The notes below the pieces were generated by a model. It was not told the origin of the DNA and searched no databases. It worked only from the letters and a program-made list of their open reading frames with translations. Shown piece by piece: positions 13,636 through 58,114 of a stretch of 64,000 bases of DNA (positions are counted from its first letter, which is position 1; the number at the start of each line of letters is the position of its first letter). Where the stretch lies: NCBI GenBank assembly GCA_020057295.1, contig JAGVGF010000002.1, forward strand, positions 190,276 to 254,275, in the 5' to 3' direction. Origin of the DNA: an archaeon. GTDB lineage: Archaea; Nanobdellota; Nanobdellia; Woesearchaeales; UBA9642. The translations under genes and the position numbers were made by a program.

Positions 13636-14000
13636 CTAACCGAATATGTGTGTGATCCAGTAAGCGAATTGATTCCACCAATTACCTATAGTTGACCATA
13701 TACCTGTAGGTGAAGATTCCAATGCAACATTACCTGTAATTAGGTTTCCACTATTACTTGTATTTCCATTATTATTTTGATTTGTTGCTACAGTATTTTG
13801 TTCATTATTATTTTGATTTGTTGTTGGTACTATTGGTGTGGTCGTATTTTGTTTTGGAACTGTTGCTTGTCCTGGTGTACATGATTTTGTTCTTGTCAAT
13901 GTTGTATTGCTATTGTCTGTGTAACATATTTGTGAACTTACGCCTTCTGAATTACATGTTGACCATGTTTCACATTGCAATGGTATTCCTCCTGATGAGC
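13636..14000 (-). repeat. C-terminal module coding repeat, copy 1 (near-identical to 19110..19500)
   Basis: Long identical runs shared with copy 2 (e.g. TGTCCTGGTGTACATGATTTTGTTCTTGTCAATGTTGT...TTACGCCTTCTGAATTACATGTTGACCATGTTTCACATTG); antisense ORFs 13758..14033 and 19337..19540 give near-identical peptides. Confidence 0.7.
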
Positions 14001-17000
14001 CTCCACTACTACCTCCTCCACTCGAAGATGTGACAACTGGTGCAGCAGCTTCTGAATATGTTACAAATTGTGTAAAATGTTTTGTCCAAATAATTAAATC
14101 GTTTCCAACATCTATTTTACAATCGCTTTCAATAGGCAGTAAGTCATTAGCAACTTGAGTATCATTCAAACAAACATTAAGTATTTTTGTAAATACTCCT
14201 GCTCTCGAATAACCCGTAAGTTTTCCTGCCTGACCAGATATTACAAGTCGAGCTGCATTATCAAATGTCAATTTAGTATCACCATAGCCCACTTCAACAA
14301 CTGATAAAACAGTGTTAGTCATTCCATTATTTACTGTTGGCGTTACGCTTGTTAGAACATTAACTGTTGGAACATTCATTATGCCATTCCAATCCTCAGG
14401 ACCAGAAATGGTTGTTCCTGAAGGCAATGTTACACTATAATCAGTTCCTAATGTATCTCTTGAAAGTGTTAAATCATTTGATAAATTAACAGATGTAAAA
14501 TTTGTTGTTACATTTGTTATATTATTAGTTACTGAATTAGTCGTTGTTAAAAGAGACAAATCTAATGTTACTTGTTTTGTATCTTCTATGGTGTTTGGTA
14601 CATTAATATTCGTTAAAGGCGAACCAACCGGAACAAGTATATCTGTTGAATTTTCAGTTACGTTCATAACTTCAGAATCTGCTAATGTTTGATTTTCTGT
14701 TGGAATGTCTGTCATGTTAGTTGTCAATGCAGAGGTAGTATACCATGGTGCATAACTTACATTGCCAGAAATAACGGCTGTAAAATTAGGATTAGCACTG
14801 CCCCAATAATTATACGTTGCGTTAACAAATGGGTGAGTAGAACTTATACTAATATCATTATTAACAAATCTATTTTCGTGTGCAACTACAACAGTGTTAT
14901 CTATATCTGAATATCCAACTGCTATAGCTTCAGTACAGTTTGAAATCGTATTACCTGTTATAGTAGCACGAGTTCCTGTTCCGTAATAGTCCGTTACTAA
15001 AATTCCTGCCGATGTCGAACCGTCATTTGTTGTAACGCCCTTGCAATTTGATATAGCATTGTTAGATATTATTGCTGATGCTCCCGCACCTACTTCTATT
15101 CCATAATCTAAAAAATCACCTGATCCTTTTCCGACATAAGTATTGCCAGTAATCAAAGCGTTACCAATCGCTGGTCCACTATACGCTCCACGAACATGAA
15201 CTCCTATACGTTCAATGTTGCTGAATGTGTTGTTGCTGACTGTTATATTGCCAAACACTACGATTCCGCGGCCAGAGTACGTGCCTGCTTTAATGTTCTT
15301 TATAATATTATTGTTAATCGTTCCATCACCATAAGATGCTATTGCCCAATTAATTAATCGTGTTGGTGCATCACCATCTAGTGTTACATTACTTAAATTG
15401 AAATTCACACCGGTGTTAATCAGGAACCATGCTGCGCTATCAGCATTGTTGCCTGCAGTATCGGTTGATGGCTTTATGATTGTCGTTAGTTTATTAACTC
15501 CGACGATAGATACATTTTTGCTAATGACTATTTGTCCAGTTTCAGTATACGTTCCTGGTCCTACTTTAATCGTGTCGCCGCTCTGAGCAACTCTATCAAT
15601 CGGATATCGTTTTATTGCAGTGTAAATACCAGCAATATTAACAATATCTCCTGTTGAACCACAGCCGATGCAATCCCATGTACGCATTTCATTTGCTGGA
15701 GTCCAAACAGTTACAGATTTATCGAATGTGTTTGCAGTAAGAATAGCGTTCCAATCCAATGAACTATAACCTACATTTCCTTTGTAATTTCCCCAAGCAA
15801 TAACATGTCTACGATCTGCTGTTGTAAATTCATTATTAGTAATTGTTGCTGCTCCAACAGGATACACATCCCATAGATCTGCTTGTGGACCAACAAATTC
15901 AATTCCATCCATAACGTTCTCAAACTTATTACCTATAATTACACGATTAGCAACATCTCCACTCCAACCTGCACCGCTGCTAAAACGGATGCCAGAACCA
16001 TATAAGCCTGCTCCGCCACCATCTAGTAAGTTTCCTTCAATTCTATAAGATTGTAAATGAGAACTGTCTGTTCCCGAATCATACTTTGGATCGTACATAT
16101 AGATTGAAGAAACTCCATCCATTGCATTTATTACAGAATTTTTTATTACAACATTGTTCCCAATCACTTCAACTGTTTTAGTGTTCTCTCCACCGTTCCA
16201 TCCCAAAATTGTGAAACCAGAAATTACTACATTATCAGCTTGAACAAATATTGTGTCCTCATGCCCAGAGTTTAACAATTGTCTTTTTGGACTGATTGTT
16301 GCAAGGACATTATCATAATTTGTTATTACATTTCCATTATTATCAACACCTTGTATAGTGACTGATTTATCTACAAAGATATTGAAATCACTAGAACCTG
16401 CTCCGCCATCAACTTGATTACGGGAATTCGCTTCATCCTGGTTATATGTTCCAGGTGTGACATCAATTATATCGCCACTAGTGGCTGCATCAATCGCAGC
16501 CTGAATAGTATAAAAAGATTGCTCTCCTGAATCAAGAATGTTATTTACATTCGTATCAATGAAAACTGGACCTGAAAAATTCGTAGCGTTAGAAGTATAA
16601 ATAGATATGTTGTTAGAATCTAATGTTACTGCTGTTTGTGCTAATGCTCTTCCGTTTAATGTTGCTCCAGTTAGCATTGCAATATTTGTAGCATCTAAAA
16701 TATTTCCACTTAATACTGATGTTGTTCCAAGTGTTGTTGTGCTAGCGACTTGCCAGAAGATATTTTTTGACTGGCAACTTCCATTTAATATAACTTGCTT
16801 TGAAGAAGCAATATTTAGAGTATTTGCTATTTGAAATATAAACACACCATTCGAGTCTCCTTGACAATCAAGAACAACATTGTTATTTATCAATACCGAA
16901 GTACTTGGACCCCATTTGTAAATTCCTGGTGTTAAAGTCATTCCGCTAATGTCTCCTGCTCCAAGTTCGATATAATCTGCGGATCCTGTGCCATTAACTC

Positions 17001-17388
17001 TTCCAGCTGCATCATTGTAAGCAGTTGTCATATCATTTGTTGCAGTATTAATTTTAGCTGGGGTTGGAACAGCATAGTTATATGCATATATTTTTCCATT
17101 CACTAAAGTTGATGTAGAAAATTGATTAGAACTATCTAGAGTTAACGCGAAATTTCCTGTTATTGCTGTAGAAGTTACTGCAGGGCCGACACCAATATCT
17201 CCAACAATAGATGTTGTACCAGTAGAAGATATTCCGGAACCAGATAATATAACAAAGTCTGCAGTTGATCCGAGATTTACAATCGCGGGACTTGATGCAT
17301 TAACAAAGTATACCATAAATAAGAAAATTATGAGAATAAATACTATTGAATATACAACGATTTTTGATAATATCTTTTTCTGTTTCAT
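13636..17388 (-). CDS. giant secreted surface protein: DUF3494 (ice-binding-like) domain + right-handed beta-helix repeats + conserved Cys-rich C-terminal module
   Basis: Signal peptide; N-terminal domain 'VNLGSTADFVILSGSGISSTGTTSIVGDIGVGP...LTPGIYKWG...NIFWQV...LNGRALAQTAVTLD' is a classic DUF3494 pattern; central PbH1-type repeats ('GNTISNCTEAIAV...'); C-terminal GS linker, 'PLQCETWSTCNS...ICYT...TKSCTPGQ', N/T-rich stalk, 'WWNQFAYWITHIFG'. Confidence 0.8.
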   Translation of the reverse strand: MKQKKILSKIVVYSIVFILIIFLFMVYFVNASSPAIVNLGSTADFVILSGSGISSTGTTSIVGDIGVGPAVTSTAITGNFALTLDSSNQFSTSTLVNGKIYAYNYAVPTPAKINTATNDMTTAYNDAAGRVNGTGSADYIELGAGDISGMTLTPGIYKWGPSTSVLINNNVVLDCQGDSNGVFIFQIANTLNIASSKQVILNGSCQSKNIFWQVASTTTLGTTSVLSGNILDATNIAMLTGATLNGRALAQTAVTLDSNNISIYTSNATNFSGPVFIDTNVNNILDSGEQSFYTIQAAIDAATSGDIIDVTPGTYNQDEANSRNQVDGGAGSSDFNIFVDKSVTIQGVDNNGNVITNYDNVLATISPKRQLLNSGHEDTIFVQADNVVISGFTILGWNGGENTKTVEVIGNNVVIKNSVINAMDGVSSIYMYDPKYDSGTDSSHLQSYRIEGNLLDGGGAGLYGSGIRFSSGAGWSGDVANRVIIGNKFENVMDGIEFVGPQADLWDVYPVGAATITNNEFTTADRRHVIAWGNYKGNVGYSSLDWNAILTANTFDKSVTVWTPANEMRTWDCIGCGSTGDIVNIAGIYTAIKRYPIDRVAQSGDTIKVGPGTYTETGQIVISKNVSIVGVNKLTTIIKPSTDTAGNNADSAAWFLINTGVNFNLSNVTLDGDAPTRLINWAIASYGDGTINNNIIKNIKAGTYSGRGIVVFGNITVSNNTFSNIERIGVHVRGAYSGPAIGNALITGNTYVGKGSGDFLDYGIEVGAGASAIISNNAISNCKGVTTNDGSTSAGILVTDYYGTGTRATITGNTISNCTEAIAVGYSDIDNTVVVAHENRFVNNDISISSTHPFVNATYNYWGSANPNFTAVISGNVSYAPWYTTSALTTNMTDIPTENQTLADSEVMNVTENSTDILVPVGSPLTNINVPNTIEDTKQVTLDLSLLTTTNSVTNNITNVTTNFTSVNLSNDLTLSRDTLGTDYSVTLPSGTTISGPEDWNGIMNVPTVNVLTSVTPTVNNGMTNTVLSVVEVGYGDTKLTFDNAARLVISGQAGKLTGYSRAGVFTKILNVCLNDTQVANDLLPIESDCKIDVGNDLIIWTKHFTQFVTYSEAAAPVVTSSSGGGSSGGSSGGIPLQCETWSTCNSEGVSSQICYTDNSNTTLTRTKSCTPGQATVPKQNTTTPIVPTTNQNNNEQNTVATNQNNNGNTSNSGNLITGNVALESSPTGIWSTIGNWWNQFAYWITHIFG

Positions 17389-17467
17389 TTTTAATCCGCC
17401 TCTCCCCTTGTAAACATATTAAATAATATGTTCTTAAACAATATTTTTTTATTTTTTTATACAAAAT

Positions 17468-17953
17468 TTATCTAGCCTTGACTTCTCCTGGAGATGCTGA
17501 AATAGTATCTTCTGTATTCTCTACATCTCCTTCGGAAAATCTGTAGTGTCTTGTAATTTTAATTCTTGCAGTATCTTCGATCACATCTCCTGTTTTGTCA
17601 GGCAGTAATCGCATATTATGAATATCAATTCCTTGAATTTCTATCTCTACTTTTCTTATACTTGAATGGTTTGGTGTGAGTACAATGGTTTTGTGATCAG
17701 GTCCCCATTTTTTCTCGAATGTTCCAGATGTATAATTAAATTTAGATAAAGGAATATTTGGAAGGGTTAAGCAATTCGCTTTCAAAAAAACAATATACTC
17801 GCCATAAGTCATTATAGGAATTATGCCTTTGCCCTCTTTCTTGCTTTGATTTTCAAAACGTATAGTGTCTTTTCTTTGTATATAGTGCAAACTATTCTTT
17901 TGATTTATGTTACTTTTAATTTCGTCTAATTTATCTTCTTTTGATTTTTCCAT
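17468..17953 (-). CDS. hypothetical protein
   Basis: Start chosen at 'MEKSKEDK' to avoid overlap with the upstream membrane-protein gene; no motif recognised. Confidence 0.35.
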   Translation of the reverse strand: MEKSKEDKLDEIKSNINQKNSLHYIQRKDTIRFENQSKKEGKGIIPIMTYGEYIVFLKANCLTLPNIPLSKFNYTSGTFEKKWGPDHKTIVLTPNHSSIRKVEIEIQGIDIHNMRLLPDKTGDVIEDTARIKITRHYRFSEGDVENTEDTISASPGEVKAR

Positions 17954-17991
17954 TGTAATAATGCTCCATTTTTTAAAATGATATTTTTTTC

Positions 17992-18321
17992 TTAAAGTGG
18001 CCCAGCAATTGTTGGTAATATTAAACTGACAATAATTGCAAAAATCCATATAACTACAGCTATAACAAAAGATTTTATCCAACCAATCTTATATAAACTA
18101 CCTAGAGCGATAAGCCAAGCTATTCCACCAATTAATGCAGCAACCCAACCTATTCCTATAAAATAAGAAGTGAGTGAAAATATTATTGCACCGACAAGTG
18201 CAGTTAATATAGCTGTACCAAATCCTTCTTTTTCTCCAAATAATTTTGCAGCTATATAAATAATAATTGATGATATGATTAAACTTATCAAAAATCCTAT
18301 TAATGCTTCTAATACTATCAT
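17992..18321 (-). CDS. small integral membrane protein (4 TM)
   Basis: 109 aa, Gly/Ile-rich TM helices. Confidence 0.45.
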   Translation of the reverse strand: MIVLEALIGFLISLIISSIIIYIAAKLFGEKEGFGTAILTALVGAIIFSLTSYFIGIGWVAALIGGIAWLIALGSLYKIGWIKSFVIAVVIWIFAIIVSLILPTIAGPL

Positions 18322-18407
18322 AATAAACCTCTATTTCTTGACCGTGTCATTACACAATTTTGTGATAATGATTCCTAATATAGAACCTAAATATTTTTTG
18401 TTAACAT

Positions 18408-18527
18408 TTACGTTTTCATTATTTTTTTTCCTGCAGGTCTGTTTTTTACCATTCCTTTTCCACCTGCGCTCTTTGCAGCTCTTTTCTTTGCTGCTGTCAT
18501 TCTTCCGCCTCTGCTTGATTTTGCCAT
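18408..18527 (-). CDS. possible 39-aa Lys/Ala/Gly-rich basic peptide (not in track)
   Basis: MAKSSRGGRMTAAKKRAAKSAGGKGMVKNRPAGKKIMKT; GGAGG 8 nt upstream of its ATG. Confidence 0.25.
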   Translation of the reverse strand: MAKSSRGGRMTAAKKRAAKSAGGKGMVKNRPAGKKIMKT

Positions 18528-18528
18528 T

Positions 18529-18759
18529 TTATTTCCTCCGTTTGTTATAGTCTATGTTTTTAATTAGCCAATAAATTCCTACAATTATTAGAATAATTAC
18601 TAAGATGCTGAAAATCCAGCCGAGCGACATAAATCCATAACTATATCCGCTCATCATTCCATAACTTCTAAAACCGAATCCGAAAAATTCTAAGAGGATT
18701 AGAATTGCTATAACAACAACTATTCCTATAATAAAATTTTTATTATCTTTCTTTGTCAT
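18529..18759 (-). CDS. small membrane protein
   Basis: 76 aa, two TM helices, basic C-terminus. Confidence 0.4.
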   Translation of the reverse strand: MTKKDNKNFIIGIVVVIAILILLEFFGFGFRSYGMMSGYSYGFMSLGWIFSILVIILIIVGIYWLIKNIDYNKRRK

Positions 18760-18805
18760 TTTTATTTTCCCAAATTTAATTTACTAATATAAATCTGATA
18801 ATTAT

Positions 18806-18994
18806 TTAAGCTTGTTTGATCACGTGAGCTATTACTGAAATTGCAAATAATATTACAAAAATTATAGCTAACCATTTAGCGATTGTAAATGATGTTCCTG
18901 AGATGAATCCAAATCCTAATATTCCAGCAATTACTGCTACTACCAAAAATATTATCGCTAAAAACAACCAGCCTCCTAAACCTTTTTTATTCAT
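18806..18994 (-). CDS. DUF1328 (UPF0391) family small membrane protein
   Basis: 'GWLFLAIIFLVVAVIAGILGFGFISG' matches the DUF1328 pattern. Confidence 0.5.
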   Translation of the reverse strand: MNKKGLGGWLFLAIIFLVVAVIAGILGFGFISGTSFTIAKWLAIIFVILFAISVIAHVIKQA

Positions 18995-19109
18995 TTTTGT
19001 CTCCGTTATAATTATGTATTCTTCACAGTAAGTTTATATCACATTTGAATCAAATGTTCTAATTAAAAAAATAAAAAAATGTATTACGCAACTTTACGTT
19101 GATAAGCTT

Positions 19110-19500
19110 TTAACCAAATATGTGTGTGATCCAGTAGATGAACTGGCTCCACCATCGACCTATAGTTGACCATATTCCTGTAGGTGATGATTCTAATGCA
19201 ACGTTACCTGTAATTTGGTTTCCATCATTTGGTGTATTTCCATTATTATCTTGAACTACTGGTGTAGTCTGATTTACTGCCCAAGTGTTTTGTCCATTGT
19301 TACCTGTGTCTGTTACTGGTGTAGTTACGTTTTGTTTTGGAACTGTTGTTTGTCCTGGTGTACATGATTTTGTTCTTGTCAATGTTGTGTTGCTATTGTC
19401 CGTGTAACATATTTGTGAACTTACGCCTTCTGAATTACATGTTGACCATGTTTCACATTGTAATGGTGTTCCTCCTGATGAACCTCCACCGCCTCCTCCT
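19110..19500 (-). repeat. C-terminal module coding repeat, copy 2
   Basis: See 13636..14000. Confidence 0.7.
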
Positions 19501-21215
19501 GTGCTTGCTGGTGGTTGTACAACAGCAGCATCAGTTGTAAAGCTTGTAGTATTACTTACAGAATATCCTGCTTTATCATAACATGTAATATTTACTGTAT
19601 AAGCTGTACTAGAACTTAGACCGCTTAAACTAGCTGTGTATACTCCATTACTTAAAATTAAATTGCCGCTTCCCGCGCCTGTATAAGTACAATTATTTAT
19701 TCCAGAATACATATCACTAGCATTAATAGTAATGGTTGCACCACTACTAGTTACACTACCGCTGGATACACTGTTTGTTACTGGTGCAGTTTGATCTACA
19801 TAAACTGTAAACGAAGTCGTGTTTATGTTTGTAGCATTATCTCTTACAGTTAAGTTTACATAGTACGTACCATTTGTAGTAACAGTATATGTTTCTATTG
19901 CTGAAAGATTAATTGTGGTTGCTGTCCAATTCTGTAACAATCCTCCTGTAGAATTGTATACTGATAATGTCCAATTTATTAAGTTAGTATCATTAGCAGT
20001 AAAGTTAATACTTAATGTTGTGTCATTAGTACCGTAACCATTACTTACATTGTTGATACTATTAATTAATGATGTTGGCATAATTGTATCTATAAAAACC
20101 ATTCTATTACTAGAGTTAGTTACAACAGATCCGTCATCACAACTCATATACCAACTATTGTTACCTTCGCTTAATTGTGCATTAGCAGTAATAGCAGTAT
20201 TAGTATTATTAACAACTGAACTATTTGTTCCTACAGAAACATTGTTTGCATACAAAGTACAAGATGCTGTTGAAGCACCAACATACTTGAAAGTAAATGC
20301 TGGCATATTACTAGTATTCCATGTATTAGTTGTAGGATTTACTAAAGTTACTACTGGTGAACTTGTGCCAGTTGGCGATGTAACTATATTGGATTGCAAT
20401 GTAACTTGATCAGTTGATGCAAATAATTTACCAGTTATATTAGCACCAGTAAGTGCGTTTACTTCTGTCCATGCGAATACATTTCCATAAAAAACAGTGT
20501 TAGTTCCAATAACTGTTTTACCTGCTGTTCTCCAATAAACATTTTTTGCTTGTGCACCGTTTGCTAAAATTATATTACCTCCTGGGGCTCCAGTAATAAG
20601 AGTGCCTGTACCGACTATATTAAAAATCCACACGGAATTAGGATTACCTTCTGCATCTAGAGTTAAATTTCCTTGTTGTATTATTACATTGGAAGCAGTC
20701 TTATAGACTCCACGAGTAAGTGTTAAATTGCCTAATTCTGTTGGGCAAGATATTGTTGGTGCGTCAGGATTTGGGTCTGCAGCTAAATATGTGAATGCAA
20801 TTCCTAAATCAGTTTTTGCTTGAGTTATCATTGCACCGCTAGTTGTCCATGTTGCTCCAACAGGTAATGTTGAATAATGTAATGGATAAGGAAATGGTGC
20901 CGGATTAGAATCATCGGATGCGTATGATGTTCCGCCTGTAAGTTCAGTAAAATCTCCTGCAGGTCCAGTTGATGTGAATCCTGTAATGAACGTACGAGCT
21001 TGATCTTCTACACCAATATCTCCACCTGTAATATTACTGCCTACTGTTGTTGTGACTGTTTGACTAGCTAAAATTACGAATCTGCCTGCTTCTCCTAAAT
21101 CTGGAGCAGTTGGATTTTCTCCTACTGCATTAACGTTAATTGCACTAATTAATAATATAGTTGCAAAAATTGCAATATACATAAAGATGTTTGATGATGT
21201 GTTTTTTTGTTTCAT
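19110..21215 (-). CDS. secreted surface protein: DUF3494 (ice-binding-like) domain + Ig-like domains + conserved Cys-rich C-terminal module
   Basis: Signal peptide nearly identical to that of 21326..22546; DUF3494 motifs ('LGEAGRFVILASQTVTTT', 'LTRGVYKTASN', 'NVYWRTAG'); C-terminal ~120 aa ~90% identical to the C-terminus of 13636..17388. Confidence 0.8.
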   Translation of the reverse strand: MKQKNTSSNIFMYIAIFATILLISAINVNAVGENPTAPDLGEAGRFVILASQTVTTTVGSNITGGDIGVEDQARTFITGFTSTGPAGDFTELTGGTSYASDDSNPAPFPYPLHYSTLPVGATWTTSGAMITQAKTDLGIAFTYLAADPNPDAPTISCPTELGNLTLTRGVYKTASNVIIQQGNLTLDAEGNPNSVWIFNIVGTGTLITGAPGGNIILANGAQAKNVYWRTAGKTVIGTNTVFYGNVFAWTEVNALTGANITGKLFASTDQVTLQSNIVTSPTGTSSPVVTLVNPTTNTWNTSNMPAFTFKYVGASTASCTLYANNVSVGTNSSVVNNTNTAITANAQLSEGNNSWYMSCDDGSVVTNSSNRMVFIDTIMPTSLINSINNVSNGYGTNDTTLSINFTANDTNLINWTLSVYNSTGGLLQNWTATTINLSAIETYTVTTNGTYYVNLTVRDNATNINTTSFTVYVDQTAPVTNSVSSGSVTSSGATITINASDMYSGINNCTYTGAGSGNLILSNGVYTASLSGLSSSTAYTVNITCYDKAGYSVSNTTSFTTDAAVVQPPASTGGGGGGSSGGTPLQCETWSTCNSEGVSSQICYTDNSNTTLTRTKSCTPGQTTVPKQNVTTPVTDTGNNGQNTWAVNQTTPVVQDNNGNTPNDGNQITGNVALESSPTGIWSTIGRWWSQFIYWITHIFG

Positions 21216-21325
21216 TTTTGTTTCTCCCTTATCGTAAATTTTTTGTTTTTTTTTATTCTATAATTTTTTCAAATCTGATTTTGATTTTCTTTTATTTATT
21301 GTATATTCTTATCGTAAAATTTTTA

Positions 21326-22546
21326 TTACTTTCCTCCAAAGAGTCTTGAGACCCATGCAAGGAAATTTTCCCACCACGAATTTTTACTTCCACTTTGTGT
21401 TGTTCCGCCAGCTTGTGTATTTTCATTATTGTTTGTATTATTTTGACTTGCTGGTGTACTTTGATTTACAGTCCAAGTGTTTTGTCCATTATTACTCGTA
21501 TTTGTTACTGGTGTAGTTACGTTTTGTTTTGGAGCTGTTGTTTGATTTAATGTACATGCTTGTGTCTTTGTTAATACTGTATCTCCAGTAGTATACTTGC
21601 ATGTTCTTGTACTGATATTTTTTGAATTACATGCTGACCATTCTGTACATTCAAGAGTATTTGAGCTTCCGCTAGTACTTCCTCCTGAACTTGAACTTCC
21701 GCTTCCACTACTTGTTCCTCCTGAACTTCCACTGCCTGTTCCAGGAGTAGGAGTTGGTGTAGGTGTTGGATTTGGTGTTGATGATCCTGATGGTATTGTG
21801 ACAGCATTTGCATCTAATGTTACTGCTGTTTGTGCTAGTGCTCTTCCATTTAATGTTGCTCCGGTATTTAGTACGATTGCTGTTTGACCTAGAATATTTC
21901 CTTTAAAGTCTGATGTTGTTCCAAGTGTTGCTTGACCTGCGACTTGCCAGAATATGTTCTTTGCTTGTGCACCGCCACTTAGAATAACTTTTTTACCATT
22001 TGCTATATCAAGTGTTTGCGCTATTTGGAATATCCATACATCTGTTGAACTTCCTGATAATGTAACATCTGTTGGTATTGTAACTCCAGTTCCCCATTTG
22101 TAAAGTCCAGGTGTTAATGTCATTCCGCCTATATTTCCAGCGCCTAATTCAGTATAATCTGGTAATGTTCTTCCAGCTGCATCAGTGTATGCTATTTCCA
22201 TATCGCCTATAGCTACACCCATAGCAGTTGGTGTTGGTGGGGTATAATCTGCTGCATATATTTTTCCTGTTACTAAAGATGATGTTGCGAAAGTATTTGA
22301 TGCATCAGAAATTAATCCGAATCCTGTTATGAAAGTTGCAGCTGCTGGACTTAATCCAATATCCCCAACTATTGAAGTGGTTCCAGTAGTTGAAACCCCT
22401 GATTTTGATAGAATAACGAAATTGCCTGCTGTTCCAAGATTTACAGCTGATTGTGCTGCGTTGACATTAAATGCGCTCATTAATAATATAGTCGCAAAGA
22501 TTGCAATATACATGAAAATATTTGATGTTGTGTTTTTTTGTTTCAT
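21326..22546 (-). CDS. secreted DUF3494 (ice-binding-like) protein with PT/GS linker and related Cys-rich C-terminal module
   Basis: DUF3494 pattern 'VNLGTAGNFVILSKSGVSTTGTTSIVGDIGLSP...LTPGLYKWG...NIFWQVAG...LNGRALAQTAVTLD'; 'PNPTPTPTPTPGTGSGSSGG...' linker; 'LECTEWSACNS...CKYT...TQACT'; Trp-rich C-terminus. Confidence 0.8.
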   Translation of the reverse strand: MKQKNTTSNIFMYIAIFATILLMSAFNVNAAQSAVNLGTAGNFVILSKSGVSTTGTTSIVGDIGLSPAAATFITGFGLISDASNTFATSSLVTGKIYAADYTPPTPTAMGVAIGDMEIAYTDAAGRTLPDYTELGAGNIGGMTLTPGLYKWGTGVTIPTDVTLSGSSTDVWIFQIAQTLDIANGKKVILSGGAQAKNIFWQVAGQATLGTTSDFKGNILGQTAIVLNTGATLNGRALAQTAVTLDANAVTIPSGSSTPNPTPTPTPTPGTGSGSSGGTSSGSGSSSSGGSTSGSSNTLECTEWSACNSKNISTRTCKYTTGDTVLTKTQACTLNQTTAPKQNVTTPVTNTSNNGQNTWTVNQSTPASQNNTNNNENTQAGGTTQSGSKNSWWENFLAWVSRLFGGK

Positions 22547-34274: not shown

Positions 34275-35330
34275 TTATCTTACAATTTCTATGCCTAATT
34301 CATCAGACATTCTTTGTCTGTTAGCCTTGGCTTGTTTTGGTGAGACCTTACCCATGATGTATGGACTCTTAACACCAGTAATGATTGTCATTACTGTTAA
34401 TTTGCCCTTCATGGACTCGGAGACTCTTGCTCCCCATATTACGTTTGCGTCTTCATCCATTGACTCAGTTACTAACTCGCCAACTCTGCTGATTTCGTCC
34501 AAAGTCATATCATTTCCACCACTAATGTGAATGATTGCTCCTGTAGCTCCTTCGTAGCTAATCTCTAATAATGGATTGCTTAATGCTCCCTTAACAGCTT
34601 CTTCTACTCTGTTGTTAGTATCTGATGCACCAACACCAATAGCTGCTACTCCACCATCAGTCATTATTGCCTTTACATCTGCATAGTCTAAGTTGACTAA
34701 GGATGGTATTGCAATTGTTTCTACGATTCCTTTAATCATTGTTGCTACTAATTCGTTTGCTACAGCGAATGCTTGTTGTACTGGTAAGTTACCAGCAATT
34801 TGTACTAGTCTGTTGTTATCAATTACTATTACTGTATCTGATACTTGTCGTAATTGTTGTAGGCCAAATTCTGCTTTGTCTACTCTTGCTCTCTCAATCT
34901 TGAATGGCATAGTTACTGTTCCAATAACTATAGCACCCATATCCTTAGCTGTTTGTGCGATTACTGGTGCTGCTCCAGTTCCAGTACCGCCGCCCATACC
35001 AGCACATATAAAGACCATGTCTGAACCTTTCAGTGCTTCCTTGATCTCTTGAATACTTTCTTGTGCTGCCTCAGTTCCTCTTTCCGGGAATCCACCACAT
35101 CCTAATCCTCTAGTAACGTCCTTTCCTAATAAGAATTTTCTATCAGCTTCCATTAAATTCAGGTGTTGCTGATCTGTGTTACAGGCAATTATTTCTGCTC
35201 CTTTAATGCCTTTCTTGTATAGCCAGTTAACCATATTGTTACCAGCACCGCCAGCACCAATAACTTTTATGTTGGCTTGGCCAACTTCTACTCCATCATA
35301 TCCATTTGCGTTTGTTTTCACGAAGTCCAT
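34275..35330 (-). CDS. ftsZ: cell division GTPase FtsZ
   Basis: Tubulin signature 'GGGTGTG', N-terminal 'GAGGAGNN'. Confidence 0.9.
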   Translation of the reverse strand: MDFVKTNANGYDGVEVGQANIKVIGAGGAGNNMVNWLYKKGIKGAEIIACNTDQQHLNLMEADRKFLLGKDVTRGLGCGGFPERGTEAAQESIQEIKEALKGSDMVFICAGMGGGTGTGAAPVIAQTAKDMGAIVIGTVTMPFKIERARVDKAEFGLQQLRQVSDTVIVIDNNRLVQIAGNLPVQQAFAVANELVATMIKGIVETIAIPSLVNLDYADVKAIMTDGGVAAIGVGASDTNNRVEEAVKGALSNPLLEISYEGATGAIIHISGGNDMTLDEISRVGELVTESMDEDANVIWGARVSESMKGKLTVMTIITGVKSPYIMGKVSPKQAKANRQRMSDELGIEIVR

Positions 35331-40943: not shown

Positions 40944-42011
40944 GTGAGTATGGGATTGTATGATGATTTACTAAAGGGTGGAGAATCCCTATTTAAGAAC
41001 GAGTACGCATTAGATTATACTTTTCTTCCAAAAACTGTTCCTTATAGAGAGGCACAACAGAAATATCTAGCTTCATGTATAAAACCTTTATTGATGGATC
41101 ATAATGGACGTAATGTTCTGGTCCATGGTCCACCAGGTGTTGGTAAGACTGCTGCATTAAAACACTTACTTCGAGAATTAGATGAAAGCGATGAATTTGC
41201 AGAAAAACTTTTCCCAATATATGTTAATTGCTGGCATAAAAATACCACATATAAAGTAGTCCTAGAATTATGTGATCAAGTTGGTTACGCATTCGTACAA
41301 AATAAGAATACTGAAGATTTATTCAAAATAGTTACGCAAATTATTAATAAAAAAGGAGCAATATTTGTATTCGATGAGATAGATAAGGCTGAAGATACAG
41401 ACTTCCTATATATACTATCAGAAATGGTTTTTAAAAAAACCATATTTTTAGTAACGAATTATAAATCTTGGCTTCTAGAATTAGATGATAGGATTAGAAG
41501 TAGATTAATGATGGAACAGACAGAATTTCCACAATATAATGCTGAAGAAGTTGCTGGAATATTAAAAGAGAGAATCCCTTATGCATTTAACACTAATTGT
41601 GTTGATGATGATGCAATAATAGCAATTGCTAACAAGGCAGCTGATTTAAAAGACTTAAGGATAGGAATGTTTTTACTTAGAGAATCTGCAGTAGTTGCAG
41701 AATCTAAAGGCAGTAAACGTGTTAAAGCAGAGCATGTACAGTCAGCTATCTTGAAAATAGATCAGTTCACAATTAAGAGTACTGATGATTTGGATGATGA
41801 TGCTAAAAATATATTAAAAATTGTTAGAGAATATAGTGGTAAAAAAATTGGTGACTTATATAAATTATATGAGCAGGCCGGCGGTAAAACTTCTTATAAA
41901 ACCTTTCAGCGTAAAATCACCAAGTTAGAAGAAGGTAAGTTTATTTCTTTAGAAAGAACTCATGCTGGTGGTAATACTACTATTGTGAATAAAAAATTAA
42001 CGGAATATTAA
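40944..42011 (+). CDS. cdc6: Orc1/Cdc6 replication initiator
   Basis: AAA+ Walker A 'HGPPGVGKTA', Walker B 'IFVFDEID', C-terminal winged helix. Confidence 0.9.
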   Translation: MSMGLYDDLLKGGESLFKNEYALDYTFLPKTVPYREAQQKYLASCIKPLLMDHNGRNVLVHGPPGVGKTAALKHLLRELDESDEFAEKLFPIYVNCWHKNTTYKVVLELCDQVGYAFVQNKNTEDLFKIVTQIINKKGAIFVFDEIDKAEDTDFLYILSEMVFKKTIFLVTNYKSWLLELDDRIRSRLMMEQTEFPQYNAEEVAGILKERIPYAFNTNCVDDDAIIAIANKAADLKDLRIGMFLLRESAVVAESKGSKRVKAEHVQSAILKIDQFTIKSTDDLDDDAKNILKIVREYSGKKIGDLYKLYEQAGGKTSYKTFQRKITKLEEGKFISLERTHAGGNTTIVNKKLTEY

Positions 42012-55632: not shown

Positions 55633-56001
55633 TCACTTTCTTTTTTTTAATTGTTTTAGATTATTATCAAGATCTATGCCGTACTTTCCGTCACCATATT
55701 TGTATATTAATCCATCCTGATTCATTAAAGATTGTAGATTTAATTGATACTTTCCTTTACCCGTAATATTTATTGCTTCAATGTCAAAAATTATTATCTC
55801 CTTATTATCATCATCTTCTAGTTCGTAGAAATAATTTATTTCATCATATGATTCTTCAACCTTCTTTTTAGCCTTACTGTTTTTATTATTTTTAACAAAA
55901 TAGAATAATTTACCTCCGCATATACATCCGTTAAGTATCTCTTCAGAACCTTTTTCGTATACTTCTCCACATTTTACACATTTATGCTGCATCAAAATCA
56001 C
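55633..56001 (-). CDS. Zn-ribbon protein (archaeal conserved, GTPase operon)
   Basis: 'CVKCGEVY...CICGGK' zinc ribbon; 4-nt overlap with the upstream gene. Confidence 0.45.
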   Translation of the reverse strand: MILMQHKCVKCGEVYEKGSEEILNGCICGGKLFYFVKNNKNSKAKKKVEESYDEINYFYELEDDDNKEIIIFDIEAINITGKGKYQLNLQSLMNQDGLIYKYGDGKYGIDLDNNLKQLKKRK

Positions 56002-56414
56002 TTCTTCTTAATATTATTTTTACCTGTACCTTTTGAATATTTATTTATATAATCTTTATGAAAATATATTTCTATACTTTCAGGATTTTGTTTTAGTTCG
56101 CTTATTATTTTTGCGGGACCAATAATTGTTAATCCTGTACTTTCACCGATTAATATTTTTGCAATGTTATGTTTAATTCTAGTTATTAGATTATGTTCAT
56201 GATTGTCGTGTACTATTCCTATTTCTAAACCATTAAATTCATCGTTAATAGAATTCATTGTCTCTCTTATTAAATTTGCTTCATCAATACTGTTCAATCG
56301 TCCATCAATTAGTATAATATTTTCTTCTTTTATAAGTTTTAATATCTCTTCCATTCTGCCCTTAGAATTCATGCTAGAAAGTTTCTTATTCGACAAATAT
56401 TTGAATTTTAACAT
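55998..56414 (-). CDS. conserved archaeal hypothetical protein (GTPase operon partner)
   Basis: 138 aa; lies between the GTPase and the Zn-ribbon gene, with overlapping or adjacent ends. Confidence 0.4.
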   Translation of the reverse strand: MLKFKYLSNKKLSSMNSKGRMEEILKLIKEENIILIDGRLNSIDEANLIRETMNSINDEFNGLEIGIVHDNHEHNLITRIKHNIAKILIGESTGLTIIGPAKIISELKQNPESIEIYFHKDYINKYSKGTGKNNIKKK

Positions 56415-56421
56415 TTTAGAA

Positions 56422-57072
56422 TTAACGTTTAACCTTTTTTCTCATAACAATTAATTTGTCATATAGGTCGTCCATATTCTTAGAAAACTTTGCGCTTATA
56501 CCTATAACTTTATATTTTGGAAATGCTTGTTGTATCTTTTCTAATTTTCCTGATTTCAAATCTATTTTGTTGGCTATTATCAAGAAAGGTATATTTCTAG
56601 CTTCTAGATTACCTACTATTGTTAAATTTACTTGATTAAGAGGATTTTTTGTTGAGTCAATCATTATTAGAACTATATCTACATTATCTAGCCATTTAAT
56701 GCTTTCAATAACACCTTTAGTTGCTTCACGTGCACGCTGTTTTGCTTCTTTATTATTCATTCCAGCTTTTACAAATACTTCATAATCTATACGCGTGGCA
56801 ATGCCTGGCGTGTCTATCAAATCAAACTCTATTTTTTTGCCATTTCTATTGACTAGTAATTTTTCTTTAACATTAATTTTTCTGGTTTCATGAGCTATAT
56901 TTGAGATATCTGTAAATTCACTATCAGAATTAATTACATCTTTACACATTCTATTAGCAAGCGTAGTTTTTCCACTGTTTGGTGCACCATATATTCCTAA
57001 CTTAAATATTCTTTTGTCAGCGAATATAGTATCCCATACATCCATAAATACTGTTTTAAGTTTTGCTATCAT
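56422..57072 (-). CDS. small GTP-binding protein (archaeal GTPase)
   Basis: G1 'GAPNSGKT', G3 'DTPG', G4 'NKID', G5 'SAK'. Confidence 0.7.
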   Translation of the reverse strand: MIAKLKTVFMDVWDTIFADKRIFKLGIYGAPNSGKTTLANRMCKDVINSDSEFTDISNIAHETRKINVKEKLLVNRNGKKIEFDLIDTPGIATRIDYEVFVKAGMNNKEAKQRAREATKGVIESIKWLDNVDIVLIMIDSTKNPLNQVNLTIVGNLEARNIPFLIIANKIDLKSGKLEKIQQAFPKYKVIGISAKFSKNMDDLYDKLIVMRKKVKR

Positions 57073-57151
57073 AATTCACACTCTATTACACCATTATCAT
57101 ATGATAAGAGAATTCATCTATCCATACAGGTTATTTAAAAAAGTTTTGATT

Positions 57152-57574
57152 TCAAGAAGTTATTTTTTGCATGGTAATATTTCCACCATTTTTTGTAACG
57201 TTATTCATTCCCTTGCCTACTGTCGATGATCCTTTGACATATCCTTGTTGAACGAAGTAAACTCTTTCTCTACCAGCATATCTTATAACTATTTCTGGAG
57301 TATTGCCAGCTCCGGGTATTATATCTATACTATAATTTGCTCCATTAATACTCTGCGGTAATTCAAACTGTCTATAATATCCATCTGTTACTGATTCGGC
57401 AAGTTTTATTTCATTAACAACAAGATTTTCAACCTGCTTGGCAGCTTGATCTGTCTTATCCCTATTTGCATCCACAAGTTTTGCTTGAATTACTATATAG
57501 AATACTAAAAATGTCATTATCATGAAACCTGTTAGTATAACAAATTCCATTGATGTTTGAGCTTTACGATTCAT
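57152..57574 (-). CDS. archaeal type IV pilin-like protein (class III signal peptide)
   Basis: N-terminus 'MNRKAQTSMEFVILTGFMIMTFLVF' has a prepilin-peptidase-type site (K-A-Q|T) and a hydrophobic helix. Confidence 0.55.
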   Translation of the reverse strand: MNRKAQTSMEFVILTGFMIMTFLVFYIVIQAKLVDANRDKTDQAAKQVENLVVNEIKLAESVTDGYYRQFELPQSINGANYSIDIIPGAGNTPEIVIRYAGRERVYFVQQGYVKGSSTVGKGMNNVTKNGGNITMQKITS

Positions 57575-57583
57575 ATAATCACA

Positions 57584-58114
57584 CTATTTCAACTGTGAGA
57601 TGTATACATATGTTGTTTTTGATTCAAATTTTAGTTGATGATTTCCAGGCTGAGGAATATTTGCTGTCATCGCAGTATTACCACAATTAGGAGGGAGACT
57701 GCCGCCGGAACATGCACTTCTAGGTGCACTTCCATACTGATACCCTCCAGAAATATTTATTCTTGAAAAGAATACTGCTTCATTTATTCCGCTAGACAAT
57801 TCATATTTTATTACCAACTCTTGATTGTTAAGTATATATACGTCACGGACATTTTTTGGATAACGTAAATCTTGTGTTACAAGTGATCCATCTGCTAATC
57901 CATATATAGATTCAGCGTTAGTTATTATAGAAGTACCAATTTGTGTGATTTGCGTCCTTATCGATGCTTCATTAGATGTTTGTGAGTACTTATAGAAGAA
58001 ATATCCTCCTGGTATAAGTATAGCGAATGATACTCCAATAATTATCAAGTATTCAACAGAAATTTGTGCTTTAGACTTTTTTAACAACATACACCTCTTT
58101 GATATCACATACAC
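57584..58114 (-). CDS. archaeal type IV pilin-like protein (class III signal peptide)
   Basis: 'KKSKAQISVEYLIIIGVSFAILIP' class III signal. Confidence 0.55.
   Translation of the reverse strand: MYVISKRCMLLKKSKAQISVEYLIIIGVSFAILIPGGYFFYKYSQTSNEASIRTQITQIGTSIITNAESIYGLADGSLVTQDLRYPKNVRDVYILNNQELVIKYELSSGINEAVFFSRINISGGYQYGSAPRSACSGGSLPPNCGNTAMTANIPQPGNHQLKFESKTTYVYISQLK

Follow-up and report, generated by a model that had tools for sequence, protein, structure and literature searches.

In Haloferax volcanii, HVO_3014, HVO_3013 and HVO_3012 encode a system that has been described under several names. As ArvABC, it was published for vesicle formation in Haloferax: knockout of ArvA lowered the yield of extracellular vesicles about 2.9-fold, overexpression gave hypervesiculation, and knockouts of arvB and arvC likewise altered vesicle yield (PMC10927574). 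In two 2026 preprints the proteins, there called DipABC and ArcoABC, are described as a Min-like oscillator that moves from pole to pole and positions the FtsZ ring, and Haloferax deletion strains are reported to form abundant minicells. The Dip preprint further reports that dip deletions abolish motility by the archaellum, which is a type IV filament, and its authors raise the possibility that further membrane proteins are patterned by the oscillator. In the Arco preprint, ArcoA groups near Arf/SR-beta, with the MglA family as a separate basal prokaryotic group; the paper also points to the sub-micron size of DPANN cells in which the system is encoded, and calls geometry sensing there an open question. 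Both papers on the oscillator mechanism are preprints, and the mechanistic work was done in H. volcanii. As laid out in both, the likeness to bacterial MinCDE is one of analogy in that a membrane-binding NTPase and a releasing factor oscillate and carry an FtsZ antagonist; the archaeal system, however, has no sequence or fold homology to MinCDE, uses a GTPase instead of a ParA-type ATPase and falls outside that family.

The locus analyzed here is from a 1.2-Mb DPANN archaeon and lies in a 64,000-nucleotide stretch of one contig, referred to as the window. Between 55633 and 58114 the ORF list of the window contains five ORFs, all on the minus strand, and the five same-strand genes with close or overlapping ends of the original prediction are thus recovered. 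In the direction of transcription, pilin B comes first, followed by pilin A, the GTPase (arvA), the 138-aa protein (arvB) and the Zn-ribbon protein (arvC), with intergenic gaps of 9, 79, 7 and -4 nt (Table 1). The pilin genes had been placed 80 bp after the triad; given the minus strand, they are 5' of it, and the distance is that of the second gap. We suggest, with a probability of roughly 75%, that the region consists of two separate units that are neighbors by descent: (i) the published arvABC genes and (ii) a relocated pair of minor-pilin genes with no demonstrated functional tie to arvABC.

Table 1. Features of the locus and two further genes of the window (window positions).
Feature	Position	Strand	Description
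Pilin-like gene B	57584..58090	-	168 aa from ATG 58090; open frame extends to GTG 58114
Pilin-like gene A	57152..57574	-	140 aa; class III signal MNRKA/QTSMEF (slash, cut)
BRE/TATA-like element, putative promoter	57131..57147	-	AAAACTTTTTTAAATAA; within the pilin A-arvA gap
arvA (dipA/arcoA)	56422..57072	-	216-aa small GTPase, putatively membrane-associated
arvB (dipB/arcoB)	55998..56414	-	138-aa SepF-like protein (predicted structure), DUF2073/OapB
arvC (dipC/arcoC)	55633..56001	-	Zn-ribbon; 122 aa from GTG 56001 or 119 aa from ATG 55992
Orc1/Cdc6 gene	40944..42011		14 kb from arvABC
FtsZ homologue	34275..35330		one of two in the genome

Translation of pilin B probably begins at its ATG, which sits 2 nt past a Shine-Dalgarno-like AGAGGTG run, and not at the upstream GTG. 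A similar run, AGAGTGTGA, stands immediately 5' of the arvA ATG. The GTG start of arvC and the stop of arvB share a 4-nt overlap, and the shorter version of ArvC agrees with the MPHQC start in homologues.

The triad is arvABC (also oapABC, dipABC and arcoABC), because the products of its second and third genes match PF09846 (OapB; 8.6e-15; 55 bits, cut-off 27) and PF09845 (OapC; 3.1e-20; 73.2 bits, cut-off 23) above the Pfam cut-offs and the GTPase gene is directly upstream of both. The two families together with a GTPase carrying G1-G5 motifs bear out the suggestion of a conserved archaeal operon. The function of the trio had been called unknown, but it is already published, as vesicle formation for ArvABC and as FtsZ-ring positioning for DipABC/ArcoABC; the triad should be annotated under these names and not as an unknown GTPase operon, and no new explanation is needed. 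In ArvA, all motifs expected of a Ras-like small GTPase were found (G1 GAPNSGKT, residues 29-36; switch-I T63; G3 DTPG, 87-90; G4 NKID, 168-171; G5 SAK, 193-195), and across 40 homologues these positions vary little or not at all. The protein matches MMR_HSR1 in Pfam (1.1e-14) and, below threshold, SRPRB (22.9 bits, cut-off 25) and Arf (21.7 bits, cut-off 22.3). For a possible amphipathic membrane-targeting helix at its N terminus, calculation alone gives residues 1-18 a hydrophobic moment of 0.54 with a mean hydrophobicity of 0.76. The further proposal that the GTPase is a spatial, polarity-type switch accords with the pole-to-pole oscillator described in the preprints.

ArvC is a Zn-ribbon protein of a conserved family, as had been proposed, with the correction that its cysteines follow a CxxC...CxC and not a CxxC...CxxC pattern, the second pair being C26 and C28; CxxC...CxC is found in 34 of 42 homologues and a CxxC second pair in six of the 42. 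At 122 aa it fits the non-haloarchaeal length class, for which about 131 aa is given in the Arco/Dip literature. ArvB is present in a single copy in the genome. The OapB search also matches in H. volcanii and Methanosarcina in a set of 14 control genomes. Among the 301 genomes of the order it finds the family in 266, a count that takes in eight genomes flagged as unpublished; this near-universal presence of arvABC in a DPANN order is a modest addition made by the present analysis. None of ArvB, ArvC and the two pilins has an NCBIfam family. Of the apparent arvA-arvB fusions, with open frames of 205-273 aa, the one in the genome G010 was rejected, since its frame is just that of arvB extended upstream so that it overlaps arvA.

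Myxococcus MglA/MglB, which is linked to type IV pili, also uses a small GTPase for spatial control in a prokaryote, and the original prediction had accordingly seen the 138-aa protein as a candidate Roadblock/LC7 protein. In such a module, the GTPase and a GAP of this fold would set the polarity of surface filaments, and the likeness is that both are small-GTPase spatial switches in prokaryotes and that the triad adjoins pilin-like genes. The structure comparison, however, points elsewhere, in that ArvB is SepF-like in its predicted structure. When the model (pLDDT 75) was compared with 48,161 chains in VIA-align, SepF occupied ranks 1-3, 7 and 8 (Z 6.5, 6.5, 5.9, 5.6 and 5.5; named matches 3zih, Z 6.5, 3zie, Z 6.5, and 3zig, Z 5.9), and these Z scores, all below 8, are moderate support if taken alone. 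Foldseek gave no PDB match at E<=1e-3 and listed SepF 7al1 at rank 15. No Roadblock, LC7 or MglB structure is among the best 50 VIA-align chains or the listed Foldseek rows, an absence that does not by itself exclude the fold. The counterpart of ArvB is called SepF-like in both 2026 preprints, and the separation of ArcoA from the MglA group in the Arco preprint adds a GTPase of another branch. With a SepF-like partner, a GTPase from elsewhere in the family tree and FtsZ as the published target, the MglA/MglB analogy is disfavored, and we regard a module of this kind at the locus as extremely improbable.

We infer that the Haloferax mechanism may be carried over to this archaeon. In that case (i) SepF-like ArvB would take ArvA off the membrane, (ii) ArvA and ArvB would oscillate from pole to pole and carry with them the Zn-ribbon protein ArvC, an antagonist of FtsZ1, (iii) the Z ring would thereby form at midcell, and (iv) loss of the system would lead to minicells and altered vesicle release. 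The genome contains two FtsZ homologues, in which FtsZ1 and FtsZ2 are not distinguished, and one SepF, and this co-occurrence with FtsZ-based division counts for the identity of arvABC. In sum, the system agrees with that of Haloferax in the three families, their order, their tight spacing, the SepF-like ArvB and the presence of FtsZ and SepF in the genome. It differs in that it is located away from orc1 and the replication origin, and an origin association as in Haloferax is ruled out here by the distance to the Orc1/Cdc6 gene; in that its host is a small-genome DPANN archaeon; and in that a pilin-like pair precedes the operon.

Alternatively, the triad could be mainly a vesicle GTPase system and not a positioner of the divisome, with the pilin-like proteins as surface factors for budding or cell contact. 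The reduced and increased vesicle yields of the Haloferax mutants fit such a role, and the emphasis of the Arco authors on geometry sensing in sub-micron DPANN cells leaves room for it. On the other hand, the minicells of the deletion strains indicate a division defect, from which, we suggest, the vesicle phenotype may follow; moreover, two FtsZ proteins and SepF in the genome are the co-occurrence signature of a role at the divisome, and nothing ties the pilins to vesicles. Overall, we consider a primary role in vesiculation or budding to be quite improbable and retain the reading of arvABC as a divisome-positioning system beside a separate pilin pair.

The two proteins encoded upstream of arvA are type IV pilin-like and probably minor pilins. 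A motif scan gives the class III signals MNRKA/QTSMEFVILTGFMIMTFLVFYI for pilin A (PilA) and MLLKKSKA/QISVEYLIIIGVSFAILIPGGY for pilin B (PilB; MLLKKSKA/QISVEY), each with a short basic leader and, past the cut, a hydrophobic stretch, and Q+1 and E+5 are invariant in both families (alignments of 25 sequences for A and 34 for B). The prepilin-peptidase sites that had been proposed are therefore present in both proteins, with the cut expected at KA/Q and not, as had been written, at KAQ/. Alanine at -1 is accepted at class III cleavage sites, and both KA/Q and KG/Q are seen in homologues of the pair. In archaeal pilins of the DUF361 type, positions -1, +1 and +5 are occupied by G, Q and E (PMC3875500). 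The pair thus resembles the DUF361-type minor pilins of Methanococcus maripaludis (EpdA-C/MMP) in its short class III signal, Q+1, E+5 and a size of 130-170 aa, and also in that M. maripaludis has its pilin genes at several dispersed loci, apart from that of the assembly ATPase (PMC3875500); it differs in the Ala at -1 and in that both proteins remain below the 23.7-bit cut-off of PF04021 (PilB 5.9e-4, 20.1 bits; PilA 15.5 bits), a Class_IIIsignal model that, at only 27 positions, is a weak test.

The AlphaFold model of PilA (pLDDT 92) predicts a helix over residues 3-61 followed by a beta-sheet head of six strands. The six leading rows in VIA-align (Z 6.5 to 4.6) contain nothing but type IV pilins and minor pseudopilins, headed by 5g25 (Z 6.5), 7b7p (Z 5.4) and 5bw0 (Z 5.0); Foldseek gave no PDB match at E<=1e-3. 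Weak sub-threshold matches to DUF7266 occur in 14 of the 25 PilA family members. A prediction of a PilA-PilB complex, made without control runs, scored 0.00 (mark, 0.32), which bears on binding in neither direction. The genome encodes one A24 prepilin peptidase and, among about 2300 ORFs, about ten canonical Q+1/E+5 genes in four clusters. Because such genes are few and the arrangement recurs in related genomes, the placement of the pair in front of the triad is more than chance.

Across the order, pilB-pilA-arvABC is found in 19 of 83 evaluable Woesearchaeota genomes, drawn from three GTDB families plus one unplaced contig, and arvABC without the pilin pair in 64 genomes of other families. 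The proposed linkage between triad and pilins is therefore real, and confined to one Woesearchaeota sub-lineage. Within it, the pilA-arvA junction is present in all 19 sampled genomes that carry both units, with all five genes co-oriented in every case. In the family f1 all 14 evaluable genomes besides that of the window retain it, compared with 10 of 14 for the SecF-pilB junction and 8 of 15 for a TatD gene within 1.5 kb of arvC, and is thus the best-kept junction of the block. It is also present in f38 (2/2 genomes) and f87 (1/1), where both outer flanks differ. A search of the literature found no paper that joins DUF2073/DUF2072 with pilins or Woesearchaeota; in the main texts, "pili" and "pilin" are absent from both 2026 preprints and "pilin" from the 2024 PNAS paper. 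What is known, then, is the arvABC system, and what the analysis adds is one sub-lineage in which it is preceded by a conserved pair of pilin genes.

This conservation raises the possibility that the minor-pilin pair and the oscillator work together in the sub-lineage, through placement of pili relative to the division plane or as a five-gene co-regulated operon. Constancy of the junction while the outer flanks change, the constant co-orientation and a gap that shrinks to 49 nt argue for such coupling. A link between the oscillator and a type IV filament is not far-fetched, because dip deletions in Haloferax abolish archaellum motility and the Dip authors themselves suggest that other membrane proteins are patterned. 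If the junction is functional, it would provide a handle on how a Min-like oscillator relates to surface filaments in DPANN archaea.

Several observations weigh against it. A close variant of the BRE/TATA-like element is present in 16 of 16 listed pilA-arvA gaps, the shortest being 49 and the longest 1010 nt; ten copies of the core motif occur in the whole genome, seven of them intergenic and 34-110 nt upstream of an ORF; and in one genome (G005) pilA and the motif are separated by a 222-aa gene. Because the motif is in all listed gaps and its core is rare and mostly upstream of ORFs, arvABC is most likely transcribed separately, from its own BRE/TATA promoter in the gap, as judged from the sequence. 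The T6 run of the element could serve as a terminator for the pilin genes as well; on the other side, read-through from these into arvABC may occur. Moreover, in a 94% complete genome of the same genus (G004) pilB-pilA is followed directly by TatD and radical SAM genes, with no ArvA or OapB anywhere in that genome, and the families with arvABC and no pair show the converse. SecD/SecF upstream and TatD/radical SAM downstream, which are unrelated, are also partly conserved in the lineage. Type IV pilins in their mature form expose the globular domain outside the cell, whereas the Arv proteins would be cytoplasmic or membrane-peripheral.

An obligate coupling is thus argued against by the promoter-like element of arvA, by pilins without arvABC in G004 and by the partial conservation of the other neighbors, and functional coupling in any form appears unlikely to us. 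The same element, the same genome and the restriction of the linkage to a sub-lineage leave the proposal that the GTPase switch controls pilus assembly or polarity without support. The adjacency is most readily explained as synteny conserved within this lineage and not as a pilus-control module; most simply, the pilA-arvA junction is inherited gene order.

The origin of the pair is suggested by its relatives. Elsewhere in Woesearchaeota, a T2SSE-T2SSF-T2SSF-pilin-pilin operon ends with relatives of PilB and PilA, those of PilB being in the penultimate position; in one case (L077) T2SSE, two T2SSF genes and two pilin-sized ORFs without a Pfam match precede PilB and PilA. In the genome studied here (G000), the best match to the L077 machinery is C3:43166-48131 (5.8e-197, 1.8e-66 and 9.2e-107), which is without the terminal pair, and the best matches to the L077 PilB and PilA are the genes next to arvABC (4.7e-20 and 1e-21). 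In this lineage the pair has thus probably left the pilus operon and is now located between secDF and arvABC. A bolder version holds that the terminal pair moved upstream of arvABC in f1, f38 and f87 and was kept there while the outer flanks decayed, and that placement or expression of the pilus is coupled to the oscillator in ultra-small, probably host-attached cells. If true, this would be a natural example of an oscillator that patterns an additional membrane machine, a suspicion already raised by the motility defect of the Haloferax dip mutants; we consider it rather improbable and favor relocation with inheritance of the resulting gene order. The pilus machinery itself is encoded outside the window, none being found within it: PF00437 (T2SSE) has four matches in the genome, and two of these, on contigs C3 and C5, adjoin T2SSF and pilin-like genes.

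The 55633-58114 interval of the window (G+C content 30%) is filled by five ORFs, all on the minus strand, with intergenic gaps of 9, 79, 7 and -4 nt in transcription order from pilB to arvC. Given the order of the ORFs on this strand, the two pilin-like genes lie 5' of the triad of GTPase, 138-aa protein and Zn-ribbon protein, and not after it as had originally been described.

Features of the arvABC region and the Orc1/Cdc6-like gene (window coordinates)
Feature	Position	Strand	Remarks
pilB, pilin-like B	58114 or, more likely, ATG at 58090, to 57584	minus	AGAGGTG run ahead of ATG
pilA, pilin-like A	57574-57152	minus	
BRE/TATA-like element before arvA	57131-57147		
arvA, 216-aa GTPase	57072-56422	minus	
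arvB, 138-aa protein	56414-55998	minus	
arvC, Zn-ribbon protein	56001-55633	minus	
Orc1/Cdc6-like gene	40944-42011	plus	Cdc6_lid, AAA_22

The triad is an already known system, and the window's copy is one more member of it. The GTPase matches MMR_HSR1 in Pfam, with SRPRB and Arf matches near threshold, and its GTPase motifs are invariant across 40 homologues; the 138-aa protein is OapB (PF09846, 55 bits against a cut-off of 27) and the Zn-ribbon protein is OapC (PF09845, 73.2 bits against a cut-off of 23) and has the CxxC...CxC motif that most of the family shows (34 of 42 homologues; CxxC in 6). OapABC was renamed ArvABC by Mills et al. 2024 (PMC10927574), whose data show that ArvA drives the formation of extracellular vesicles in Haloferax volcanii, is present in 1,666 GTDB representatives, Nanoarchaeota among them, and has ArvB directly downstream in 93%; the presence of the triad in this lineage has been reported before, at the level of the phylum. 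In outline, two 2026 preprints describe the same genes as DipABC (PMC13228585) and ArcoABC (10.64898/2026.07.23.738820), a pole-to-pole oscillator in which the GTPase binds the membrane and is released from it by the SepF-like B protein, the Zn-ribbon C protein is an antagonist of FtsZ1, and deletions give rise to minicells and non-motile cells.

The idea of a GTPase acting as a spatial switch was near the mark, but the target that has been published is the divisome. The original prediction of a Roadblock/LC7 fold for the 138-aa partner was not borne out. The ArvB model, built from 40 homologues (pLDDT 75), had no Foldseek match at E<=1e-3, and in VIA-align against 48,161 chains SepF was found at ranks 1, 2, 3, 7 and 8 (Z 6.5, 6.5, 5.9, 5.6 and 5.5, where values below 8 give moderate support only), with no Roadblock, LC7 or MglB chain among the best 50 rows. 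This moderate structural match agrees with what both preprints state of the B protein, and we take ArvB to be SepF-like.

The window's genome (1.2 Mb, 6 contigs, 100% complete) encodes two FtsZ homologues, a single SepF and a single A24 prepilin peptidase. Of 61 close relatives 53 have OapB, and in the order as a whole it is found in 266/301 genomes, a count that takes in 8 genomes marked as unpublished. In the published description of Haloferax the operon adjoins orc1 and an origin, whereas in the window the Orc1/Cdc6-like gene lies 14 kb from arvABC and, therefore, this association is not kept. Elsewhere in the window, three large neighbouring proteins of 1250, 701 and 406 aa (13636-22546, minus strand) each carry an ice-binding-like domain at the N-terminus (PF11999, E 5.7e-67 to 5.4e-79), and one of them also has a beta-helix region.

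Among 84 distinct arvA loci, window included, 83 genomes were evaluable, the contig of the remaining one (G013) ending 278 nt upstream of arvA. The proposed linkage of triad and pilins holds for 19 of the 83, in which pilB-pilA is directly upstream of arvA: 15/15 in the window's GTDB family, f1 (the window, 10 of the same genus and 4 from two other genera), 2/2 in family f38, 1/1 in f87 and one unplaced contig (L083). It is absent from all 64 genomes of other families, in 24 of which only about 850 nt upstream were covered. All pair-bearing rows of the ArvA tree fall outside a 49-row clade (89% support), and a single origin of the arrangement would be compatible with these sequences. No report of it was found in the main texts of the arvABC papers or in the wider literature searched, and the position of the pair before arvABC is apparently a lineage-specific, unreported arrangement.

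Does this position reflect function? In the window's family, the window's own genome left out, the pilA-arvA junction is kept in 14/14 cases compared to 10/14 for SecF-pilB and 8/15 for arvC-TatD within 1.5 kb; it also occurs in f38 and f87, where the flanks differ, and archaellum motility is reported in PMC13228585 to be lost in Haloferax dip mutants. We nevertheless consider a functional coupling improbable. The conserved block is wider than five genes and includes, in the same lineage, SecD/SecF divergently upstream and TatD/radical SAM downstream, and the mature pilins would face outward whereas the Arv proteins would be cytoplasmic. Moreover, arvA has its own Shine-Dalgarno-like run, and a BRE/TATA-like element of the sequence AAAACTTTTT(T)AAATAA, or a variant close to it, precedes this gene in all 16 pilA-arvA gaps listed, which range from 49 to 1010 nt, including that of G005 (L035), in which an ORF of 222 aa of unknown family is inserted (gap of 1010 nt) and the element is kept downstream of it. 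Finally, G004, a genome of the same genus (94% complete), has SecD-SecF, pilB-pilA, TatD and radical SAM with nothing between, and neither ArvA nor OapB was found in it. In the PilA tree the G004 protein is nested in the arv-adjacent clade, which on these sequences points to secondary loss of arvABC. At this site (L063 / L091) arvABC and an LMW phosphatase are cleanly absent.

The core motif of the element has only 10 sites in the window's genome, 7 of which lie between genes, at 34-110 nt from the ORF downstream. The same 13-15-nt core is found at C6:64494, 51 nt ahead of the second ftsZ homologue (C6:64545-65648), and at C6:63757, 57 nt upstream of the gene preceding it; the core shared by arvA and this region may simply be a strong-promoter consensus. 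In G007 (L037) three tandem TTAGAGTGTGATG units, each with a Shine-Dalgarno-like AGAGTGTGA, are located just upstream of the arvA start, and the arvA leader of G012 (L041) is about 310 nt long, AT-rich and repetitive.

As pilins, the two upstream proteins are of an ordinary type. The class III signals, MNRKA/QTSMEF in PilA and MLLKKSKA/QISVEY in PilB, both obey the rule of Q at +1 and E at +5 described for archaeal DUF361-type pilins in the text of PMC3875500. In the PilA model (25 homologues, pLDDT 92) an N-terminal helix of 59 residues is packed on a beta-sheet head. Foldseek gave nothing significant for this model, and the top six VIA-align matches belong without exception to type IV pilins or minor (pseudo)pilins (5g25, Z 6.5; 7b7p, 5.4; 5bw0, 5.0; 6xxd, 4.9; 5g2f, 4.8; 3ci0, 4.6). 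Weak, sub-threshold Pfam matches to DUF7266 (PF23928) occur in 14 of the 25 members of the PilA alignment (best E 0.001).

About 10 canonical Q+1/E+5 genes lie in four clusters of the window's genome. This genome also has a pilus locus with a T2SSE ATPase gene on each of the contigs C3 and C5. When species-representative genomes were scanned with a pattern, 34 loci with PilA relatives were obtained: pilB-pilA-arvABC in 12, pilB-pilA followed by TatD in 1 and the pair elsewhere in 21, in several at the end of an ORF run like that of L077, in which Pfam identifies T2SSE, T2SSF and T2SSF, then two pilin-sized ORFs without a match, PilB and PilA. The C3 locus is the best match to the L077 machinery but is without the terminal pair, and the best matches to PilB and PilA of L077 in this genome are the arv-adjacent genes. 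A second, more distant pair (C5:107216-108050, L102; E 2.4e-9 and 1.1e-8 against the window's pair) sits inside the C5 locus, which has T2SSE and T2SSF genes of its own. In the PilA tree, same-genus arv-adjacent copies are in a starred 12-row clade and the remaining arv-adjacent rows at unresolved positions, copies not adjoining arvABC form a separate starred 19-row clade, and C5-type copies form a third group. In the simplest reading, the window's two genes are a minor-pilin-like terminal pair that was relocated.

PilA relatives in other Woesearchaeota have open frames of 250-650 aa compared to about 135 aa (L069, L072, L073, L076, L078-L081, L084, L087 and L089), suggesting C-terminal extensions, or an N-terminal one in L069. 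L057, L058, L060 and others carry the Woesearchaeota-type locus on contigs whose public records read 'uncultured Methanosarcinales archaeon' or 'Alphaproteobacteria bacterium', labels that appear to be mistaken.
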